In this document: piece after piece, positions 2,685 to 62,744 of the stretch
How the letters are laid out: every line of letters begins with the position of its first letter
Numbering within the stretch: the stretch's first letter is position 1
From: a virus
Reading direction: 5' to 3' (one strand)
Length of the DNA: 64,000 nucleotides
IMG/VR virus record: IMGVR_UViG_3300047558_000077
Coordinates: 108,365-172,364 of that record
Translations under genes and position numbers: made by a program
Notes under the pieces: generated by a model
What the model was told of the DNA's origin: nothing
Seen by the model: the letters and a program-made list of their open reading frames with translations, nothing else
Databases searched by the model: none

Positions 2685-4055
2685 ATGTCTAATTGGAAAT
2701 ATGTCACCCGCACAGTTCAGGAATTTGTCAACGAGGCTCAACGTGATAACTGGAATGTTGATCCTGAGTGGCAGCGCCTTGACACAAATTTAAACCTTAA
2801 TGCTAAAGGCTCGAAGCCCTCTAAGGCACAGAGCATCATTGCTTCCATGTTTAATGGCCAAGATATTGGTGAAATTAAACTTTGTGACTATGAAGGTGTT
2901 AAGTCCTCAATTGATGGTGGTAATCGTAAGAGAGCCATTCTAAATTTTTATAATAACAAGTTTGCCCTTCCCAAGGGTAGCAAGTATGCAGGCCTAAAGT
3001 ATAAAGACCTTAGCGAAGATGCGAAAGAACTCTTCCTTAGCTATGTGATCCGTTTCATCGAATACGGTGAAATCACTACACAAGAAATTGGTGAAACTTT
3101 CCGTAACACCAACAATACAACTCCCGTCAATAAGCAGGAAATGCGTAACAGCGAAGGACAGAATCCAGTTGCGGTTCTCGTTCGTCGTACCACACGCAAG
3201 ATTGATGAGGTTGGTAATATCCCTCACATCCTCTTTGATTGGAGAATTAACGCAAAGGGTGATGCGGAATATACTTATCTTACCTTCAATAACAAAGGCC
3301 TGCATCTGGATGAACAGACGGCTCGTTTGCTTTGCCGTGTTTTACAGGGTGAAAAGTCCATTGCCGTGAGCGATGACGACCTTGATAAAATGTATGCAGA
3401 TTATGAGGCGTTTTTGACCGATGAGGAAAACCTCAAGAAGGCTAAGAAGAAGTTGTATGAAGTATTGGACTTTATTGTCAATATTGCCGATACAGCTAGA
3501 AAGTATAAGAATGGTCGTGGTCTTGCCCATAAGCAGTATGAAATGCTGGTTCGCCTGTATTTCTACCTTAAAGAACACCACAAGTCCTTTAAGGTTACCG
3601 ATGCTAGTGAATTTTGGGTTGCGTTCACTACCGCTATGGACTCGGTTCTTTCGTGTGACGATATCACATTTAAGGAGCGTAGCGGTAAGACTCGTGTCGT
3701 TGCAGAAGCCTTCGGTCAGTATCTTAAAAGCGACTTGAACGACCAGTGGAAGTATGATAAGTCCCTCGAACTCTTCCTGAATGAGTTTAATCTTGATAAC
3801 TGCGGTCTAAAGTTGCTTGATCCTAAGCGTTGCTTTAGCCGTGATGAAATCGAGAGTGCCTTGATCAAGCAAGGTTACAAGGACTTTATTGATGGTAAGA
3901 AACTGACCATGAAAGATGCGGTTGGTGCCCATGTTATTGCACATTCTAATGGTGGTAAGACGGAGACCGACAATCTAGTGGTCGTTTCTAAGGCTCATAA
4001 CACGGCGATGGGTACCATGCCCGTTGATGTTTACAAAGCCTCTCTCGGGTATTGA
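2685..4055 (+). CDS. DUF262 (ParB-like) + C-terminal HNH nuclease, GmrSD/SspE-like architecture
   Basis: WQR, IDGGNRKRAI (DGxxR) and FRNTNN motifs at the N-terminus; AHVIAHSNGGKTETDNL...HN HNH motif at the C-terminus. Confidence 0.75.
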   Translation: MSNWKYVTRTVQEFVNEAQRDNWNVDPEWQRLDTNLNLNAKGSKPSKAQSIIASMFNGQDIGEIKLCDYEGVKSSIDGGNRKRAILNFYNNKFALPKGSKYAGLKYKDLSEDAKELFLSYVIRFIEYGEITTQEIGETFRNTNNTTPVNKQEMRNSEGQNPVAVLVRRTTRKIDEVGNIPHILFDWRINAKGDAEYTYLTFNNKGLHLDEQTARLLCRVLQGEKSIAVSDDDLDKMYADYEAFLTDEENLKKAKKKLYEVLDFIVNIADTARKYKNGRGLAHKQYEMLVRLYFYLKEHHKSFKVTDASEFWVAFTTAMDSVLSCDDITFKERSGKTRVVAEAFGQYLKSDLNDQWKYDKSLELFLNEFNLDNCGLKLLDPKRCFSRDEIESALIKQGYKDFIDGKKLTMKDAVGAHVIAHSNGGKTETDNLVVVSKAHNTAMGTMPVDVYKASLGY

Positions 4056-4079
4056 TCTAAGTCAAAGGTAACTTAGGTA

Positions 4080-4179
4080 TGTCAACAGTCTACCTAAAAC
4101 GTAGACTTAGGGTGCGTCACCCTGTCGCACCTGTTGACATACCTTTTTTATTGACTCTTCCGTTCCGCCGTGCTATATT
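4080..4179 (+). promoter_or_regulatory. Repeated early-promoter module, copy 1
   Basis: TGTCAACAGTCTAC..GTAGAC; TGCGTCA-CCC-TGTCGCA(4113-4129); TGTTGACA(4132-4139); TTGACT(4151)-17-TATATT(4174). Confidence 0.8.
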
Positions 4180-4185
4180 AAGTCC

Positions 4186-4506
4186 ATGATCACGAAACGC
4201 AAGAAGCGGTCCGACCGCAATCACATAATCTACAGCTTGACTGTAAAGGGTCAGGAATATATCGGTGTTACCCATGTCGAAAACGGCAAGGTTAACAAGT
4301 CTTTGGACCGTCGCTGGCGCAAGCATGTCGGTCGTGCGATGACCGAAGGTAAACTGTGGAAATTGTGCGTGGCTATTCGTAAGCATGGACCTGACAATTT
4401 CACTGTCGGCGTTCTGGAAATTGTGCGTGGTAAGTCTGCGGCTCATATACGTGAGCGGGAACTTATCCGTGAACGTAAGCCTAAACTTAACTCGGATGTG
4501 CGCTAA
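4186..4506 (+). CDS. Minimal GIY-YIG-family nuclease domain
   Basis: IIY...YIG motif, RWRKH helix, conserved E in ERELI, terminal LN. Confidence 0.7.
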   Translation: MITKRKKRSDRNHIIYSLTVKGQEYIGVTHVENGKVNKSLDRRWRKHVGRAMTEGKLWKLCVAIRKHGPDNFTVGVLEIVRGKSAAHIRERELIRERKPKLNSDVR

Positions 4507-4745
4507 TGTCTACAACCTTCAATGATCTTATTGGTATGCATGACCTTGACCAGAAGGTGATTGTAAAAAAGGCCTTAGAGAGCCTTACGCCCAGAATGCA
4601 ATTTGTCGTCATTCGTCGGTTTTTTCAGAACCAGACCTTGTCGTCAATCGCTGAGGAAATTGGTCTATCTGAGGCTAGACTATATCAAATTGAACGCAAA
4701 GCCCTATGCAGCCTAAAGCGTGGCTTTAGGCGAAACAAAATCTGA
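4506..4745 (+). CDS. Stand-alone sigma-70 region-4 HTH protein
   Basis: ALESLTPR...TLSSIAEEIGLSEARLYQIERKAL matches the sigma r4 pattern. Confidence 0.8.
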   Translation: MSTTFNDLIGMHDLDQKVIVKKALESLTPRMQFVVIRRFFQNQTLSSIAEEIGLSEARLYQIERKALCSLKRGFRRNKI

Positions 4746-4747
4746 GG

Positions 4748-4804
4748 TGCGACAACCTGTCGCATATGTTTACAGTTGACTCTTCCATTCCGCTGTGCTA
4801 ATAT
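4748..4804 (+). promoter_or_regulatory. Repeated early-promoter module, copy 2
   Basis: TGCGACA-ACC-TGTCGCA(4748-4764); TGTTTACA(4767-4774); TTGACT(4776)-17-TAATAT; spacer nearly identical to copy 1. Confidence 0.8.
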
Positions 4805-4831
4805 ATTCCCATAATGATGAAAGGAACAAAT

Positions 4832-5002
4832 ATGTCTAACGCTCGCTTCGCTCCCAAGAACCCCAACGGCAAAGATACTGCTAACATTTTTGCGCTTATT
4901 CGCTGGCACGAAAATGGTGGTAAAATCACCAAAGTGAAATCGTCCAAGCGTCCGAAGCGTGGTTATACTGTCGGTAAATCTGTCAAAACGGGAGATAAGT
5001 GA
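4832..5002 (+). CDS. Small basic hypothetical protein
   Basis: AAGGA RBS before ATG 4832; NGGKITKV motif. Confidence 0.6.
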   Translation: MSNARFAPKNPNGKDTANIFALIRWHENGGKITKVKSSKRPKRGYTVGKSVKTGDK

Positions 5003-5202
5003 TGGAAGTTTTCGTCCTGATGAGCCATATCCTCTATGAATGCGACGAGTTGCTGGGCGTCTACCACAATGAATCGGACGCCGAGTTTGCCCGTGATGAA
5101 TATAAACGAGAAAACGAAGATCATATGTTCGATCAATTTAGCATTGAACGCCGTGTAATCGGTGCTGCGGCTCGGGCAGATTGGGAGACAGATAATGTCT
5201 GA
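4999..5202 (+). CDS. Small acidic phage protein (LLGVY..E..A motif)
   Basis: GGAG RBS; overlaps the previous stop. Confidence 0.6.
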   Translation: MMEVFVLMSHILYECDELLGVYHNESDAEFARDEYKRENEDHMFDQFSIERRVIGAAARADWETDNV

Positions 5203-5275
5203 TATCGTTCTGTTTATTGTGCTATTCGGTATGCCTATATCCCTGGGCCTTATTGCTATTCTCTCGGAGGACTAA
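5195..5275 (+). CDS. Small membrane peptide (26 aa)
   Basis: MSDIVLFIVLFGMPISLGLIAILSED; GGAG RBS. Confidence 0.5.
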   Translation: MSDIVLFIVLFGMPISLGLIAILSED

Positions 5276-5399
5276 TATGACAGAACAGGAAATCACCAAG
5301 CACAATAACCGCAATTCTGAACATCAGCTTATTTGGCATGGTGTTTGCGTTTGGATCTATTCTGAATATCTGAATGGATAACTCGGAGGACTAATATGA
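5263..5399 (+). repeat. 18-bp direct repeat CTCGGAGGACTAATATGA bracketing a mini-ORF
   Basis: Identical copies at 5263-5280 and 5382-5399, each containing RBS + ATG. Confidence 0.8.
5277..5381 (+). CDS. Mini-ORF (34 aa)
   Basis: MTEQEITKHNNRNSEHQLIWHGVCVWIYSEYLNG; strong GGAGG RBS. Confidence 0.5.
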   Translation: MTEQEITKHNNRNSEHQLIWHGVCVWIYSEYLNG

Positions 5400-5581
5400 T
5401 TGATCGTGATGCCTTAATAGCCGCAATATATGATCGTTATCTTGTTATAGGTAACTATTGGTGGTGTATTGATGATGTGCCCGACTTTTTAGATGATGTT
5501 ATGTCCGATGGTCACTATGATAATATATCTTTTGATCAGATAGTTGTCATGGTTTCCGATTATATGTATGATTGCGACTAA
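5396..5581 (+). CDS. Small acidic hypothetical protein
   Basis: GGAGG RBS; 61 aa. Confidence 0.6.
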   Translation: MIDRDALIAAIYDRYLVIGNYWWCIDDVPDFLDDVMSDGHYDNISFDQIVVMVSDYMYDCD

Positions 5582-5591
5582 GGAGAATGAA

Positions 5592-5696
5592 ATGATCGAT
5601 AATTCTAAAACGGTTCAGTTTGTGGCACTAACGGTAATGTCACTAGCATTGGTGTTCGGTGTTTATCTGATTTATCTTCTGGATGGAGGCATCTAA
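5592..5696 (+). CDS. Small membrane peptide (34 aa)
   Basis: MIDNSKTVQFVALTVMSLALVFGVYLIYLLDGGI; AGGAG RBS. Confidence 0.5.
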   Translation: MIDNSKTVQFVALTVMSLALVFGVYLIYLLDGGI

Positions 5697-5887
5697 TGGA
5701 GTTTACTCTCTTCAAGGCTCTAATGATTATTATGTTTATTCTCACGGCTGTTGGCATGGCATATAATGCTAAAATCATGAATGATTGTATTGATAGTGGC
5801 AGTCCAAAAAGCCAGGCGTGTTTCAAGTATAATGTAATCAATAACAACATGCATAATCTCAACCTGAACGTAGATAATGGAGAATGA
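5696..5887 (+). CDS. Small membrane-anchored protein with two Cys
   Basis: N-terminal hydrophobic helix; GGAGG RBS. Confidence 0.6.
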   Translation: MEFTLFKALMIIMFILTAVGMAYNAKIMNDCIDSGSPKSQACFKYNVINNNMHNLNLNVDNGE

Positions 5888-5889
5888 AA

Positions 5890-6042
5890 ATGGCTAATGT
5901 GAAGACCTATAACCTTTCTATTCATCTGAAAGGTAATCGCACTCTCACTTTTCGTGGCATTTCTCGTGTAGCGGTTGAACGATATCGCAAGCACTATGAA
6001 ATCCAAATGGACTATATTTCCGCATCGGTGGAGAATCGTTAA
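5890..6042 (+). CDS. Small hypothetical protein (50 aa)
   Basis: MANVKTYNLSIHLKGNRTLTFRGISRVAVERYRKHYEIQMDYISASVENR; GGAG RBS; stop overlaps the rtcB ATG. Confidence 0.55.
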   Translation: MANVKTYNLSIHLKGNRTLTFRGISRVAVERYRKHYEIQMDYISASVENR

Positions 6043-7265
6043 TGTCTTATCAGTTCGTGCAAGGTCGTGGTGCGCCGCTCAAGATGTGGTGCGAAGGTGT
6101 TGAGGTCGAGGACGATGCTCGTACCCAGTTAGAGAACATAGCGTCCTTGCCGTTCGTGTATAAGCATGTGGCGGTGATGCCGGATGTTCACTTGGGTAAG
6201 GGTGCTACGGTTGGTTCGGTTATCGCTACCAAGGGTGCGGTAGTTCCGGCGGCTGTTGGTGTTGATATCGGTTGCGGTATGATGGCAGTTCGGTTGTCTC
6301 TAAAGGCAAACGACTTGCCGGACAATCTTGCTTCGCTTCGTTCTCATATCGAGTCCGTAGTGCCGCATGGTCGCACGGACAACGGCGGTAAGAACGACAA
6401 GGGAACGTGGCTTGACCGCATTCCGAACTCGGCTTCAAATGCTTGGTTGTCTTTGTGTAGCCGTTATGATGCTATAGTGGCAAAGCACCCGAAGATTGCG
6501 TCTCATAAGACTTTTGAGTTTATGGGCACTCTCGGCACGGGCAACCACTTTATCGAGTTGTGTCTGGACGAGGACGATTATGTGTGGGTAATGCTACACT
6601 CTGGTTCTCGTGGTGTAGGTAACAAGATCGGTCAGTATTTCATCGAGGCTGCTCGCAAGGAGATGGAGCGATATCATATCCTGCCGTATCTGCCGGATAA
6701 GGACTTGTCCTATTTGGTAGAGCATACCACGCTATTCGATGATTATGTTGAAGCAGTATCCTGGGCACAGGAGTTTGCTGCTCTCAACCGTCAGGTGATG
6801 ATGGATGCGGTGCTTGATGTTCTGCGTCAGCGTTTGCCGTCGTTTGTCGTGTCTGATGAAAAGGCTGTGAACTGCCACCACAACTATATCTCCAAGGAAA
6901 ACCACTTTGGAGAAAATGTGTTTGTGACCCGTAAGGGTGCGGTTCGTGCCCGTGAAGGCGATCTTGGTATCATACCGGGTTCTATGGGCACGGGTTCGTT
7001 TATCGTTCGTGGTCTTGGTAATCAGGAGTCGTTTTGTTCGTGTTCTCATGGTGCTGGTCGTCGTATGTCCCGCAATGCGGCTCGTAAGGCTATCACGCTA
7101 GATGATCATATCAAGGCGACCGAGGGTATTGAGTGCCGTAAGGACGTAGATGTGATTGACGAATCGCCGGCTGCTTACAAGGATATCGGTGCGGTCATGG
7201 CTGCACAGGATGACCTTGTTGAGATTGTCCACCGATTGCGTCAGGTTCTAAACGTAAAGGGATAA
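6042..7265 (+). CDS. rtcB: RtcB 3'-phosphate/5'-OH RNA ligase
   Basis: MPDVHLGKGATVG, GVDIGCG, GTLGTGNHFIE, HSGSRG, CHHN, SHGAGR, DESPAAYK motifs. Confidence 0.97.
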   Translation: MSYQFVQGRGAPLKMWCEGVEVEDDARTQLENIASLPFVYKHVAVMPDVHLGKGATVGSVIATKGAVVPAAVGVDIGCGMMAVRLSLKANDLPDNLASLRSHIESVVPHGRTDNGGKNDKGTWLDRIPNSASNAWLSLCSRYDAIVAKHPKIASHKTFEFMGTLGTGNHFIELCLDEDDYVWVMLHSGSRGVGNKIGQYFIEAARKEMERYHILPYLPDKDLSYLVEHTTLFDDYVEAVSWAQEFAALNRQVMMDAVLDVLRQRLPSFVVSDEKAVNCHHNYISKENHFGENVFVTRKGAVRAREGDLGIIPGSMGTGSFIVRGLGNQESFCSCSHGAGRRMSRNAARKAITLDDHIKATEGIECRKDVDVIDESPAAYKDIGAVMAAQDDLVEIVHRLRQVLNVKG

Positions 7266-7267
7266 AA

Positions 7268-7384
7268 ATGAAACGCAAGAATGTAAACCCAGTGGCTAAG
7301 GCGTTACGTCTTGGTGTATGTAAACCTAAGGTGATTGTAGACAGGAAAACTGTATACAATCGCAAAAGGCTACCAAAACTATAG
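7268..7384 (+). CDS. ArfA-like small basic peptide (38 aa)
   Basis: MKRKNVNPVAKALRLGVCKPKVIVDRKTVYNRKRLPKL; aligns by eye to the ArfA core N-x5-L-x5-[KR]-x-[KR]-V-x4-K...Y-x-RK; not in the ORF track. Confidence 0.6.
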   Translation: MKRKNVNPVAKALRLGVCKPKVIVDRKTVYNRKRLPKL

Positions 7385-7540
7385 ACTATAGTGACTTGGT
7401 GTTCTAATATCTCAAAAATACCCCTTCAAGGGCAACCATGCCCTGTCCGAAAAATCGATAGGAAGCACCAGGAGACTTTTCACGGTCTTCTGGTGCTATA
7501 GTCTCTTCCAGACCTCAAAACTCTCCTGGCGTCTCCTGGA
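7383..7540. other. Structured intergenic region (candidate ncRNA / processing element)
   Basis: Hairpins AGGGCA/TGCCCT (7429-7444) and AGCACCAGGAGAC/GTCTTCTGGTGCT (7464-7497); outer AGACTATAG/CTATAGTCT; alternative partner GTCTCCTGG at 7531-7539. Confidence 0.45.
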
Positions 7541-7543
7541 GAT

Positions 7544-7643
7544 TGTAAACAGTCTACCAACTCTATAGACTTTAGGTGCGACATCCTGTCGCACCTGTTG
7601 ACATACGATTTCTCTTGCTTCTTCCGTTCCGTTGTGCTACTAT
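7544..7643 (+). promoter_or_regulatory. Repeated early-promoter module, copy 3
   Basis: TGTAAACAGTCTAC; TGCGACA-TCC-TGTCGCA(7577-7593); TGTTGACA(7596-7603); TTGCTT(7615)-17-TACTAT. Confidence 0.8.
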
Positions 7644-7669
7644 ATCCGCATAATGTTGAAAGGAACAAA

Positions 7670-8311
7670 ATGATCAATCTCTCCAAGGCCTCTAAAATGC
7701 CTGCTAAGTCCTGGTCGCTTCAAGCGGGTTCGACCTGTCCGGGTTCTATCGATCCCGTTACCAAGCAGCCGCTTCCTGTTTGTGCGGGTTGTTATGCAAA
7801 AGATGGCATGTATAATATGCCAAACGTCAAGTCGGTTCGTGACGCTAATCGAGAAGATTGGAAGCGTGCCGAATGGGTCGATGAAATGGTTGCTTTGCTT
7901 AAAAAGCAAAAGTATTTCCGTTGGTTCGACTCGGGAGACGTTTATCATCCGGCTCTTGCTTTCAAAATCTTTCTGGTTATGCAAAAGACTCCGCATGTGA
8001 AGCATTGGCTTCCTACCAAGTCTTATAACATTCCGAAGATCCGTGCTATTCTTGATCAGATGAAAATGCTTCCGAATGCATCTGTTCGATATTCGTCTCC
8101 GTCTATTACGGGTGAATTTAATAGCGAACATGGCTCCACTGTTATCGCATATGCCGATGATGAAACGACCGCTACGGTCTGTGGTGCTTATTCTCGGAAT
8201 GGCAAGTGTGGCGATTGCCGTGCTTGCTGGGATACGAATGTTAAGGTTGTCGCTTATCCCGCACATGGTCGTCGTATGATGTCCAAAGTCCGTAAAATGA
8301 AAGCAGCCTAA
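7670..8311 (+). CDS. GP88-like (radical-SAM-like) Fe-S protein
   Basis: TCPGS..VCAGCYA, FRWFDSGD, HWLPTK, C-terminal C..CGDCRACW; AAGGA RBS before ATG 7670. Confidence 0.7.
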   Translation: MINLSKASKMPAKSWSLQAGSTCPGSIDPVTKQPLPVCAGCYAKDGMYNMPNVKSVRDANREDWKRAEWVDEMVALLKKQKYFRWFDSGDVYHPALAFKIFLVMQKTPHVKHWLPTKSYNIPKIRAILDQMKMLPNASVRYSSPSITGEFNSEHGSTVIAYADDETTATVCGAYSRNGKCGDCRACWDTNVKVVAYPAHGRRMMSKVRKMKAA

Positions 8312-8322
8312 GGAGGATTAAT

Positions 8323-8529
8323 ATGTCACGCATATCTGATCTGATTATTCAAGCAGAGAACCTCGTTATTGAGGCTATGGGCGTTTCGGGTATTATGACC
8401 GACCGTGATGTTCTCGAATATGTAAATGACCGTATGCCTATTTACGTCGATATGCATTTTGTCGAGAGTGTCCTTGACAAGTATTTCGGCGATGACTGGT
8501 ATGGCGGCGATATTCGCTCTTATAATTGA
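8323..8529 (+). CDS. Hypothetical protein
   Basis: AGGAGG RBS. Confidence 0.65.
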   Translation: MSRISDLIIQAENLVIEAMGVSGIMTDRDVLEYVNDRMPIYVDMHFVESVLDKYFGDDWYGGDIRSYN

Positions 8530-8538
8530 GGTGATGAA

Positions 8539-8781
8539 ATGTCGTGTAGATGGCATTCATTCTATGAAAATGGACGCCTAAGGATTTATCTTTCCCATGA
8601 ATCGCTCGAAGACCTGGAAAATAGTCTTTGTCAAGGTTTCTTTGTAGCATACGGCACTTCGCCGAATGGCGGTCCGTCAGATTGTATCTGGTATGTGCCT
8701 AACACCATAATGCAACAGGAAGGAATTTTCGCTTATGAAAACCCGAGAATATACCAACAAGATTATCGAAATGGTCGATGA
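8539..8781 (+). CDS. Hypothetical protein
   Basis: GAGGTG RBS; operon context. Confidence 0.45.
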   Translation: MSCRWHSFYENGRLRIYLSHESLEDLENSLCQGFFVAYGTSPNGGPSDCIWYVPNTIMQQEGIFAYENPRIYQQDYRNGR

Positions 8782-8953
8782 AGGTCTAATCGATCGGGAT
8801 ATTCTTATTCGTGATCTTCTAAACTATATGTCCGAGTCCGATGTTGAAAACTTTTATGACCAGTATTATGGTTATGAGGACGAGGACGATGAATTGGATG
8901 ATGGTCAGCCGTCGGAAATGGACGAATGGCACGACTATGACCCAGGATGCTGA
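8735..8953 (+). CDS. Acidic hypothetical protein (DGQPSE..EWHDYDP.C tail)
   Basis: Very acidic C-terminus typical of small phage early proteins. Confidence 0.65.
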   Translation: MKTREYTNKIIEMVDEGLIDRDILIRDLLNYMSESDVENFYDQYYGYEDEDDELDDGQPSEMDEWHDYDPGC

Positions 8954-8954
8954 C

Positions 8955-9068
8955 TGTAAACGAGAGAATGTCAACAGTCTACCGACTTTATAGAATATGG
9001 ATGCGTCACCCTGTCGCACCTGTTGACATACCTTTTCGCTTGCAATCTGTCCTTACTTGTGTTATCCT
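8955..9068 (+). promoter_or_regulatory. Repeated early-promoter module, copy 4
   Basis: TGTAAAC..TGTCAACAGTCTAC; TGCGTCA-CCC-TGTCGCA(9002-9018); TGTTGACA(9021-9028); TTGCAA(9040)-17-TATCCT(9063). Confidence 0.8.
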
Positions 9069-9098
9069 TAGTCATCAAATCGAAACAGGAGTTTTAAT

Positions 9099-9641
9099 AT
9101 GCCCCGTACCGCTCAATCTAATGGTATCAAACCCTACCTGCGTGCCCTTGCCGTTATCAAGCTCGGTGTTCCTGTGACCCCGACCGAGATTAACGAGCAT
9201 GTTGGCACCGGTGACTATGCTGCAAAGTATATCTCTTTTCTTCGCAATCGCAACGGCTTCGAGTTTACCATTCAGAAAGATGGTCGCAAGGTCGTTTCTT
9301 ATACCTTGATCAAGGAACCGGCTGATGCCGAGGCCTTGCGTAATCTAATGCCAAAGGCCGCTAAGTCTAAGGCGCCTAAGGTTGCTAAGACTTCTGCTCC
9401 CAAGGTCGTGGTTGCTCCTGCTCCTAAGGCTGCTAAGACTAAAGCGCCTAAGAAGGTTGCGGCTAAGAAGTCTGTTGCCGATATCAAGGCAGCTAATCTT
9501 GCTAAACTCAAGGCAGTTGGTCAGCGTTTCAAGGCTGATCAGGTTCAGGTTCTGACCGAAGCGCCTGCGTCCACTTCGTTTAGCATTGACAACGACTGGG
9601 ACTCGGTCGAAGGTCTTGACCTCAAGAACCTCATTGGATAA
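9099..9641 (+). CDS. Putative winged-helix DNA-binding protein with histone H1-like K/A/P tail
   Basis: N-terminal VTPTEI...YISFLRN.GFEF...VVSYTL (wHTH-like); KAPKVAK/KAAKTKAPKK repeats. Confidence 0.6.
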   Translation: MPRTAQSNGIKPYLRALAVIKLGVPVTPTEINEHVGTGDYAAKYISFLRNRNGFEFTIQKDGRKVVSYTLIKEPADAEALRNLMPKAAKSKAPKVAKTSAPKVVVAPAPKAAKTKAPKKVAAKKSVADIKAANLAKLKAVGQRFKADQVQVLTEAPASTSFSIDNDWDSVEGLDLKNLIG

Positions 9642-61410: not shown

Positions 61411-62445
61411 ATGGCATTAAACTTTCCTAACTCACCAACTGATGGTCAGATATACACAGATACCTCTACTGGCTATCGCTGGGTGTGGGACTCTGGCAAT
61501 ACGACATGGAAATCAACCTCAACGTATGCTCAGACGATTACTGTGTCATCTACACAACCAGGCTCACCAGTCATTGGTCAGCTATGGTGGAATAATGATT
61601 ACGGTCGCTTGTTTGTCTATTATAGCGATGGCGACTCTTCACAGTGGGTCGATGCTTCACCAAATGACTTCAATGCTGTTGCTGCATTTAGACATGCTAA
61701 TGCTGGATTTACAAGGGCTAATACAGCTTTACAGAATACAACAGGCACGTTTGCTGGAACATTATCCACTTCTGGTGGCATAAGCGTTACTGGCAACATG
61801 GCATCAATCTCACCATCGTCTATTGGTGTTTATTTGGGCCGTGATTCTGGCGCCGCTAACAATGCAGGTATCGATATCTCTTGTAGTCCAACTGGCTATG
61901 GTTGGTTAGATTTTAACAATTCATCTAGTATAGACTATAAAGGTCGAATCGGTTACGATATTGGTAATGATATCATGCATTTAGTTACCAATGGTATCAT
62001 TAGACAACAGATTGATAGTGTTGGTCGTGTCACAAAACCATATCAGCCGGCCTTTTGGATTGAAGATTTTGATTGGTCTAGTTCAACACAAAGACCACAC
62101 AATGGATATGTAAGATACAATATAGGTAACCATTACAACAACACTAATGGATATTTCACCGCACCAATTACTGGTCGATATATGTTCATCTGCACTGTTC
62201 AAGGTCATGCTCCAAATGAAACTTCAGGTAGAAATGCGACATACTATAATCTAAAGGTTAATATTAATGGTGTTGATATTGGAAACGAGATTGTGGCTAC
62301 TTGTCAGGACTCAGTGTATGGTAAGCATAGTCAAATCACATACCCAGCCTTAGTAGTCCTAAATGCCAACGATGTGTTTTATTTTAACAGTAATTATGGT
62401 TTCAGAGTTGTTCAAAACAGTTATGTCGGTTATCTATTAGGATAA
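61411..62445 (+). CDS. Fibre protein with C1q-like domain
   Basis: MALNFPNSP.DGQ; GRVTKPYQPAF; FTAPITG; GYLLG. Confidence 0.8.
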   Translation: MALNFPNSPTDGQIYTDTSTGYRWVWDSGNTTWKSTSTYAQTITVSSTQPGSPVIGQLWWNNDYGRLFVYYSDGDSSQWVDASPNDFNAVAAFRHANAGFTRANTALQNTTGTFAGTLSTSGGISVTGNMASISPSSIGVYLGRDSGAANNAGIDISCSPTGYGWLDFNNSSSIDYKGRIGYDIGNDIMHLVTNGIIRQQIDSVGRVTKPYQPAFWIEDFDWSSSTQRPHNGYVRYNIGNHYNNTNGYFTAPITGRYMFICTVQGHAPNETSGRNATYYNLKVNINGVDIGNEIVATCQDSVYGKHSQITYPALVVLNANDVFYFNSNYGFRVVQNSYVGYLLG

Positions 62446-62459
62446 AAAAGGAGTAAACA

Positions 62460-62744
62460 ATGACAACTTACACAGTAGAATACACAAACACAGAAGACCT
62501 TGCAATGCAGTATGCAGCGGCATCCGTTGACGACTGGATTCAAAACGCAGCACATGAACGTGCCAGAATTGCTATTGATGAAATCGTAGCACTTGCCGTT
62601 CAGAAATTTCTAGATGCTGGACAGTCTATTCCAGGTTCAAAGGATGAAATCGTTGCCGCTGCTTTTGCTAACGGTTGGGTCAAGACCGCAGCACAACGTA
62701 ACAAGGAATCTGCAAGTCAAATTCCAGTAGCACCTGAAGCCTAA
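62460..62744 (+). CDS. Small fibre-associated protein (possible chaperone)
   Basis: DWIQNAAHERARIAIDEIV...GWVKTAA; AAGGAG RBS. Confidence 0.7.
   Translation: MTTYTVEYTNTEDLAMQYAAASVDDWIQNAAHERARIAIDEIVALAVQKFLDAGQSIPGSKDEIVAAAFANGWVKTAAQRNKESASQIPVAPEA

Follow-up and report, generated by a model that had tools for sequence, protein, structure and literature searches.

Repeated promoter-early stem-loop (PeSL) cassettes occur in T4-like phages and are reportedly also the subject of Arbiol et al. 2010 (PMC2839356). As described by Comeau et al. 2014 (PMC4122927), a PeSL is a stem-loop upstream of a sigma-70-like promoter, followed by a Shine-Dalgarno (SD) sequence and a start codon; neither a spacing constraint nor a host look-alike is described there. 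Phages that carry pmoC are thought to influence methane oxidation in lakes, and Methylocystis was predicted as the host of pmoC phages with genomes of 159 to 168 kb (Chen et al. 2020, PMC7674155). This founding paper is silent on how the phages control their genes, with zero occurrences of the word "promoter." Here, we analyze a repeated promoter element in the last 64 kb (the window; 64,000 nucleotides [nt]) of a 172,364-bp virus genome with 40.8% G+C, IMG/VR record IMGVR_UViG_3300047558_000077 (positions 108,365 to 172,364). Each element appears to be a single copy of a portable promoter cassette, about 110 bp long, that comprises an inverted repeat, a sigma-70-type promoter, a ribosome-binding site, and a start codon. 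We consider it probable (about 0.58) that its 17-bp palindrome is a protein operator, probably for a host factor, carried in a PeSL-like cassette.

The exact palindrome pattern TGCGWCANNNTGTCGCA is present four times in the window (Table 1), at the positions claimed in an original prediction made from the sequence alone. The chance expectation is 0.64 ± 0.99, none of 100 shuffled sequences reached 8 strand-hits, and there is no fifth site in the window even when up to 2 mismatches are allowed. Each palindrome is followed 2 bp later by a TGTTKACA box (TGTTGACA or TGTTTACA) and then by a promoter with a 17-bp spacer, as had been reported, and TGn directly precedes the -10 hexamer in all four promoters, forming an extended -10 element. 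The promoters of copies 1 and 2 were also called by an independent scan. The spacer sequence CTTCC(G/A)TTCCG(C/T)(C/T)GTGC, previously noted in three promoters, is common to copies 1 to 3 and missing from copy 4. From the start of the palindrome to the -35 element, the distances are 38, 28, 38, and 38 bp in copies 1 to 4, with copy 2 shorter by 10 bp in the alignment. All of the numbers in the original prediction were reproduced.

That prediction had also proposed a motif search over the genome and its relatives. Two pattern scans of IMG/VR recovered 63 loci on uncultured freshwater viral contigs, and an nhmmer profile search combined with a position weight matrix for the promoter recovered 88 unique palindrome-plus-promoter units. 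The cassette is thereby known from more than 60 related uncultured freshwater phage contigs; neither megablast nor blastn matched it to cultured or deposited phages. In 82 of the 88 units, the palindrome starts exactly 38 bp before the -35 element. Distances of 17 bp (three distinct units, in L022, L052, and L045), 28 bp for window copy 2, 37 bp, and, in L028, 48 bp make up the rest. Further copies in the phage's own genome, at genome positions 62718, 75553, and 75660, have distances of 27, 37, and 38 bp.

The sequence between the palindrome and the -35 element is of two types, NN-TGTTKACA-WACSWTTT-NNN (type I) and CCCTTTCNCTGCCAGTTTACA (type II), which are unrelated and yet both give 38 bp. 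L052 has lost 1 bp beside its palindrome but has one additional T downstream, which restores the 38-bp distance. Because 38 bp is kept through unrelated intervening sequences and the exceptions come in steps of about one turn, the spacing shifts in complete helical turns alone. A rough calculation puts the share of random indels that would come to within 1 bp of a multiple of 10.5 at about 0.29, so that six independent spacing events (four in phages and two in hosts) have a probability of about 6e-4, a value that is indicative only, since the units are related by descent. The helical phasing that had been proposed from the four window copies becomes much stronger with these relatives and with host promoters, in which the distances are 24 or 25, 35, and 45 bp.

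Copies 1, 3, and 4 have an upstream extension, absent from the original prediction, that makes the full unit about 110 bp long. In these copies, the TGTTKACA box recurs in inverted orientation upstream of the palindrome (TGTCAACAG or TGTAAACAG), and a further short inverted repeat, GTCTAC..GTAGAC, also lies there. Genome-wide, the box is not enriched (18 occurrences versus about 20 expected), although cassettes account for 10 of these occurrences. In an alignment of 18 cassettes, there is no covariation between its variable base and the inverted copy upstream. In many relatives (L028, L017, L041, L043, and L062), the palindrome is preceded by TGTAAAC-N1-GTTTACA, a 7-1-7 palindrome of the same box. 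This arrangement is too tight to fold, suggesting that the box is a protein site in its own right.

The phage is a T4-like myovirus whose baseplate wedge protein shares 37% identity with its counterparts in Pelagibacter phage HTVC008M and cyanomyoviruses. It carries pmoC at genome positions 61931 to 62704, and the encoded PmoC is 85 to 92% identical to that of Methylocystis. It also encodes a two-piece transfer-messenger RNA (tmRNA) of the alpha type (Table 1). The PmoC identity and the tmRNA type make Methylocystis (Alphaproteobacteria) very probably the host, in line with the alphaproteobacterial setting on which the original prediction was built. These features, together with the T4-like baseplate protein and the presence of pmoC, place the phage among the pmoC phages of Chen et al. 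2020.

The same palindrome is retained in promoters of the host family. The exact 17-mer is absent from four of five Methylocystis genomes, but it occurs twice in a Methylocystis metagenome-assembled genome (MAG) from Lake Mendota. One of these occurrences is located in the A+T-rich promoter of a gene for a 58-amino-acid (aa) glycine-rich hydrophobic peptide, adjoining an MsbA-like ABC transporter. Alignment of six orthologous Methylocystaceae peptide promoters reveals an invariant GCGACA-N3-TGTCGC with a variable loop and gaps of exactly 10 and 21 bp between the palindrome and the -35 element, the distances being 45, 45, 35, 35, 35, and 24 bp. A paralogue of the peptide gene beside a tRNA and an integrase has a distance of 25 bp. 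The six aligned promoters have a -35 element of TGGACA or TTGACT, a 16-bp spacer, a -10 region of TGnGCTAC, and a second invariant palindrome, TGCGTCGAAWTGACGCG, near +1. The host sites lie in promoters, not at gene ends, and are not followed by T-runs.

The enrichment in hosts applies only to the 15-nt core of the palindrome, GCGWCA-N3-TGWCGC, which has 43 matches in five Methylocystaceae genomes, compared with 10 for a backwards-read control. In 61 Alphaproteobacteria genomes, there are 177 matches versus 60 for the control, an excess of about threefold. Because invariant, phased sites are kept in host promoters and the core is overrepresented, there is very probably a host factor for the palindrome, which the phage cassette seems to use. 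The peptide gene itself, encoding 55 to 58 aa, is lineage specific, and some genomes have it in tandem. The peptide matched no known family, a search of 150 other genomes of the order did not turn up the peptide family, and no regulator gene lies within about 6 kb of the peptide locus in G016. A location of the palindrome upstream of host pmoC copies was considered and rejected: the matches there lie only in coding sequence beside pmoC, several of them inside an ftsH-like gene.

Variation within the palindrome bears on whether it is read as DNA or as a folded RNA. A search anchored on the downstream part of the cassette, with the palindrome left free, returned 43 unique matches, 41 of which are true cassettes and 2 of which are chance matches. 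The palindrome is exact in 29 of the 41 cassettes and variant in 12, and all 12 variants are single changes with no compensation. Some would create a G.U pair on the plus strand (L007, L017, L021, L062, and L025) and others on the minus strand (L011, L023, and L051), so the transition variants have no strand preference for G.U; the remainder produce an A.A mismatch (L010 and L061) or open the loop-closing pair (L052 and L063). Across 18 full cassettes, five pairs of the stem are invariant, two vary on one side, and none has changed on both sides, while the center pair is unpaired in 10. Covariation in a three-helix model of these 18 cassettes is no better than in shuffles (0.050 versus 0.039; 65/500).

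Signals of termination are sparse at the window copies and in type I units. A terminator scan, taken by consensus, calls none of the four window palindromes, in which 12 to 14 nt separate the stem from any T-run, a layout unlike that of an intrinsic terminator. Among 50 type I units, none has a T-run immediately next to the stem, and Rfam has no match within positions 4000 to 9100 at gathering scores. The lack of compensation and covariation, the center mismatches, and the absence of terminator calls, abutting T-runs, and Rfam matches together favor recognition of the DNA sequence over selection for an RNA fold.

If so, the 17-bp TGCGWCA-N3-TGWCGCA would be a DNA operator for a dimeric DNA-binding protein that occupies one constant helical face with respect to RNA polymerase, with its center near -65 (near -44, -55, and -75 in the variants). 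Activation through class-I-type recruitment would be likelier than repression, given the weak -35 element (TTGMYT) and the extended -10 element, and transcription from these promoters would presumably be early. The TGTTKACA/WACSWTTT stretch between the operator and the -35 element could serve as an UP-like element or as a second site. The factor is probably host encoded, since Methylocystaceae promoters keep the same palindrome with the same turn-by-turn spacing.

Several observations weigh against an operator. GG..CC flanks accompany 12 of 13 unique units with a T/T center but only 12 of 48 perfect ones, which looks like compensation for hairpin stability and argues for some structural role. 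T-runs directly follow the hairpin at genome positions 62718, 75553, and 75660 and in type II cassettes. Descent links many of the 88 units, so that independent spacing events are few (about 4 to 5 in phages and 2 to 3 in hosts), and the whole cassette is conserved, including the spacer between the -35 and -10 elements, such that gene conversion between copies could explain part of its constancy. When measured from the -10 element, the phage series (17, 28, 38, and 48 bp, with a 17-bp spacer) is offset by about 4 to 6 bp from the host series (24, 35, and 45 bp, with a 16-bp spacer); therefore, the two geometries are not the same, and phage and host sites may differ in whether they activate or repress. 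The T-runs and the GG..CC flanks would suit a reading of the element as a classical PeSL only, in which the hairpin acts in RNA as a terminator or 3'-end stabilizer of the upstream unit, its constancy results from concerted evolution, and its spacing is meaningless. The setting is that of PMC4122927, a T4-like phage in which a stem-loop, sigma-70 promoter, SD sequence, and ATG are repeated among small open reading frames (ORFs), and the predicted fold of copy 1 is a strong three-way structure that ends in U6 (-36.2 kcal/mol, z -8.2). This explanation is nevertheless quite unlikely: none of the three helices covaries, the center pair is mismatched in more than half of the cassettes, abutting T-runs are absent from type I units and T-runs from the host copies, and it gives no account of a -35 spacing that is kept through different intervening sequences and changes by whole turns only. 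A terminator function is likely as a secondary role in the type II units and the three genome copies, because their hairpin is GGG..CCC directly followed by a T-run; this minority of cassettes, with the palindrome extended in this way, could also terminate upstream transcription. Two other structural candidates were rejected, namely, a structured RNA, which finds no Rfam match in the region and no covariation in the three-helix model, and an N4-type hairpin promoter for a virion RNA polymerase, to which the 7-bp stem, 3-nt loop, and giant ORFs had pointed. The latter was dropped because the phage is a T4-like myovirus with a sigma-70-type promoter at a fixed distance from the palindrome and because the host uses the same palindrome.

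Returning to an operator, the factor named by the original prediction was the host redox regulator RegA/ActR/PrrA, through which the promoter class would read the respiratory state of the host, an identification that we regard as tentative. The 7-3-7 TGC...GCA layout is typical of Fis-type helix-turn-helix (HTH) regulators such as NtrC, and it is counted here on the side of RegA. The palindrome fits the PrrA consensus YSCGGC(5)GWCRMA at 11 of 12 specified positions and the RegR consensus GNGRCRTTNNGNCGC except for TT, both strings (from PMC5506826) being loose and thus weak evidence. Its half-site equals the left halves of putative RegR boxes, which begin TGCGACA and TGCGTCA (PMC4064962), and sites of this family usually lie upstream of the -35 element (PMC5506826), as here. 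Methylocystis parvus encodes ActR/PrrA/RegA (NF033791, 316 bits, cutoff 250) beside its kinase, ActS/RegB (NF033792, 555 bits; G001:C1:3253-5265), and the threefold excess of the core motif among Alphaproteobacteria points the same way. However, published RegA, PrrA, and RegR sites are degenerate with variable half-site spacing, unlike the strict 7-3-7 of the cassette. Chromatin immunoprecipitation sequencing of PrrA gave no strong motif (PMC4263372), half-site position 5 is A/T here and G in PrrA, and most Methylocystis genomes lack the exact 17-mer. The clearly conserved host sites head the lineage-specific peptide gene rather than respiratory genes, and among about 25 inspected matches, a sample and not the full regulon, no host site lies at cytochrome oxidase or similar genes, the rest being coding or near unrelated genes. 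ActR/RegA is the best named candidate among putative binders, with the odds well against it, and it is doubtful that the whole freshwater T4-like pmoC-phage clade drives one promoter class via host RegB/RegA (ActS/ActR). Were this true, an idealized, phased RegA box would ride on a mobile cassette, and phage expression would follow the respiratory or oxygen state of the methanotroph. Two phage proteins had also been offered as the factor. The sigma-70 region-4-like (sigma-r4) protein encoded at 4506 is ruled out because two relatives with 5 palindromes each, both at least 94% complete, lack its gene; by this distribution, the gene is an accessory one, a passenger of the cassette, and its product is not the factor that binds the palindrome in general. 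The better phage candidate, the winged-helix protein encoded by ORF 9099, would imply autoregulation, with the promoter class switched on or off after the first minutes of infection. Its N-terminal domain is predicted with confidence, its family comprises 436 metagenomic proteins, and it is encoded in four of five relatives tested, both near-complete genomes included, with a cassette directly before it each time. The same phased palindrome is, however, kept in host promoters, and no homologue of this N-terminal domain was found with this query in five host genomes; moreover, promoters that fire before phage proteins exist cannot need a phage activator unless it is injected. Binding by ORF 9099 in place of a host factor is therefore unlikely, while a part for it as a phage-side regulator of the same site is possible.

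Table 1. Positions of cassette elements, adjacent genes, and other mapped features (window positions unless a locus is named)
Feature	Position	Strand	Details
Cassette copy 1	4076..4186	+	Left box GGTATGTCAACAG 4076-4088; TGTCAACAG at 4080; inverted repeat GTCTAC/GTAGAC 4088-4106
Copy 1 palindrome	4113-4129	+	TGCGTCA-CCC-TGTCGCA; then right box TGTTGACA 4132-4139 and T-run 4144-4149
Copy 1 promoter	4151-4179	+	-35 TTGACT 4151-4156; -10 TATATT 4174-4179 with TGn; ATG 4186
Cassette copy 2 (short form)	4748..4834	+	Palindrome TGCGACA-ACC-TGTCGCA 4748-4764, 3 nt past stop of sigma-r4 ORF
Copy 2 promoter	4776-4804	+	TGTTTACA 4767-4774; -35 TTGACT 4776-4781; -10 TAATAT 4799-4804; SD AAAGGAA; probable ATG 4832
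Cassette copy 3	7544..7672	+	TGTAAACAG 7544-7552; GTCTA..TAGAC; palindrome TGCGACA-TCC-TGTCGCA 7577-7593; TGTTGACA 7596-7603
Copy 3 promoter	7615-7643	+	-35 TTGCTT 7615-7620; -10 TACTAT 7638-7643; ATG 7670
Cassette copy 4	8969..9101	+	TGTCAACAG 8969-8977; palindrome TGCGTCA-CCC-TGTCGCA 9002-9018; TGTTGACA 9021-9028
Copy 4 promoter	9040-9068	+	-35 TTGCAA 9040-9045; -10 TATCCT 9063-9068; ATG 9099
GIY-YIG homing-endonuclease-like ORF	4186..4506	+	Headed by cassette 1
Sigma-70 region-4-like HTH ORF	4506..4745	+	79 aa; between cassettes 1 and 2
GP88-family gene (PF17338)	ATG 7670	+	Behind cassette 3
ORF 9099 (P0001)	9099..9641	+	180 aa; behind cassette 4
Permuted (two-piece) alpha-type tmRNA, phage encoded	17561-17936		Tag AANDNVPFDYALAA; ARAGORN; Rfam RF04321 95 bits, RF01849 56 bits
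Host peptide loci	L152 1530-1920; L153, L171, L177, L179, L155, L202		Conserved two-palindrome promoter

Cassettes 1 to 4 are followed by a GIY-YIG homing-endonuclease-like ORF, a small ORF, a GP88-family gene, and the gene for a winged-helix protein, respectively. The N terminus of the GIY-YIG protein (M-I/M-K-x-K-R-K...) follows more than 20 cassettes in relatives. In the window (4174 to 4188), the ATG of this ORF lies 6 nt past the -10 hexamer without an SD sequence, and more than 20 cassettes in relatives share the geometry of -10, 6 nt, and ATG-AT[CG/A]-AAA... (e.g., L009, L001, L036, and L045). With an ATG only 6 nt after the -10 element, the GIY-YIG mRNA is apparently leaderless. The cassette may spread together with homing-endonuclease genes.

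The protein of ORF 9099 is predicted to begin with a winged-helix domain of the MarR/ArsR/PadR type (pLDDT of about 90), followed by a Lys/Ala/Pro-rich linker and a C-terminal DWDSxEGLDLxxL in which W-D-S..D is invariant in the alignment. We take this tail to be reminiscent of the clamp-binding ends of T4 gp33, gp55, and gp43. Between cassette 3 and the small basic ORF (7269 to 7384) that follows rtcB is a 161-nt noncoding stretch (7385 to 7545) that folds strongly, at -52.1 kcal/mol (z -4.3), and includes a 14-bp hairpin. It has no Rfam match and is possibly a structured RNA next to rtcB.

The three related copies outside the window have features of their own. At all three, the T-run is followed by a TTGACW-N17-TATAAT promoter. 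Behind pmoC (C1:61931-62790 region), 14 nt past the stop codon, are GGGGTGCGAC-GCAA-TGTCGCACCC and TTTT, with a consensus TTGACA-17-TATAAT promoter 27 bp from the start of the palindrome. Some 33 kb before the window (C1:75400-75760), there are three tandem promoter units about 105 bp apart. Transcripts from the first two are predicted to be only about 60 nt long, to duplicate the 5' leader of the third, and to stop at a palindrome-like hairpin and T-run. Such short transcripts may be small RNAs or attenuator-like copies of the leader.

The original prediction had suggested that the repeats are points at which gene cassettes are shuffled. One clear case of an indel at a cassette border is available: in L036, the next cassette lies directly behind the GIY-YIG gene, whereas the window and G009 have the sigma-r4 gene between the two. 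Shuffling is plausible from that single case and fits the PeSL concept. More generally, the cassettes appear to head gene modules in a plastic region of a T4-like pmoC phage of Methylocystis. They constitute a compact, testable cis-element that ties about a hundred phage promoters to a site also used by the host. The 17-bp sequence offers a bait with which to find the regulator directly, and the element also makes it possible to test whether infection is adjusted to the physiology of the host. Beyond this phage, the results suggest that the promoter-stem-loop cassettes repeated in T4-like phages may harbor operators as well as terminators.

The closest described counterparts of the cassette are PeSLs. 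Both occur in T4-like myoviruses and place an inverted repeat just upstream of a sigma-70-like promoter, SD sequence, and start codon, the layout found in the window cassettes. Both are present in many copies in plastic regions among small ORFs and homing-endonuclease genes, here as four copies within 5 kb among ORFs of 50 to 100 aa, and PeSLs adjoin gene indels between relatives, as the cassette may do, with the sigma-r4 gene as the one clear case. They differ in that published stems vary (GN-loop-CN or A3-4G3-loop-C3T3-4) and are read as terminators (PMC4122927), whereas the stem of the cassette is one fixed 7-3-7 sequence that is often mismatched at its center and usually lacks an abutting T-run. 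Moreover, the stem of the cassette keeps its helical phase to the -35 element and recurs in host promoters. The cassette is best viewed as a member of the PeSL kind whose new features are a fixed-sequence, mismatch-tolerant, phased palindrome and a host-promoter counterpart, and the "stem-loop" of this PeSL family is probably an operator.

Three regulatory systems offer further points of comparison. Like RegA boxes, the palindromes are GCG...CGC inverted repeats with 5 bp between GCGNC cores and lie upstream of the -35 element; the half-site TGCG(A/T)CA occurs in listed RegR boxes, and the host encodes the regulator. Unlike the cassette site, known RegA sites are degenerate and variably spaced, and the host sites of the exact type are not at known RegA-regulon genes. 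At class I activator-dependent promoters, CRP binds at -61.5, -71.5, or -82.5. The center of the cassette operator likewise moves in steps of about one turn (-44, -55, -65, and -75) upstream of a weak -35 element, although activation of the cassette is deduced from geometry alone. Promoters of T4-like cyanophages carry sites for host regulators, such as NtcA and PhoB boxes. In both cases, a lytic T4-like phage would have sites for a global regulator of its host placed before its own genes, but the host clade and motif differ, and the site described here is part of a repeated, mobile cassette in which its phasing is strict.

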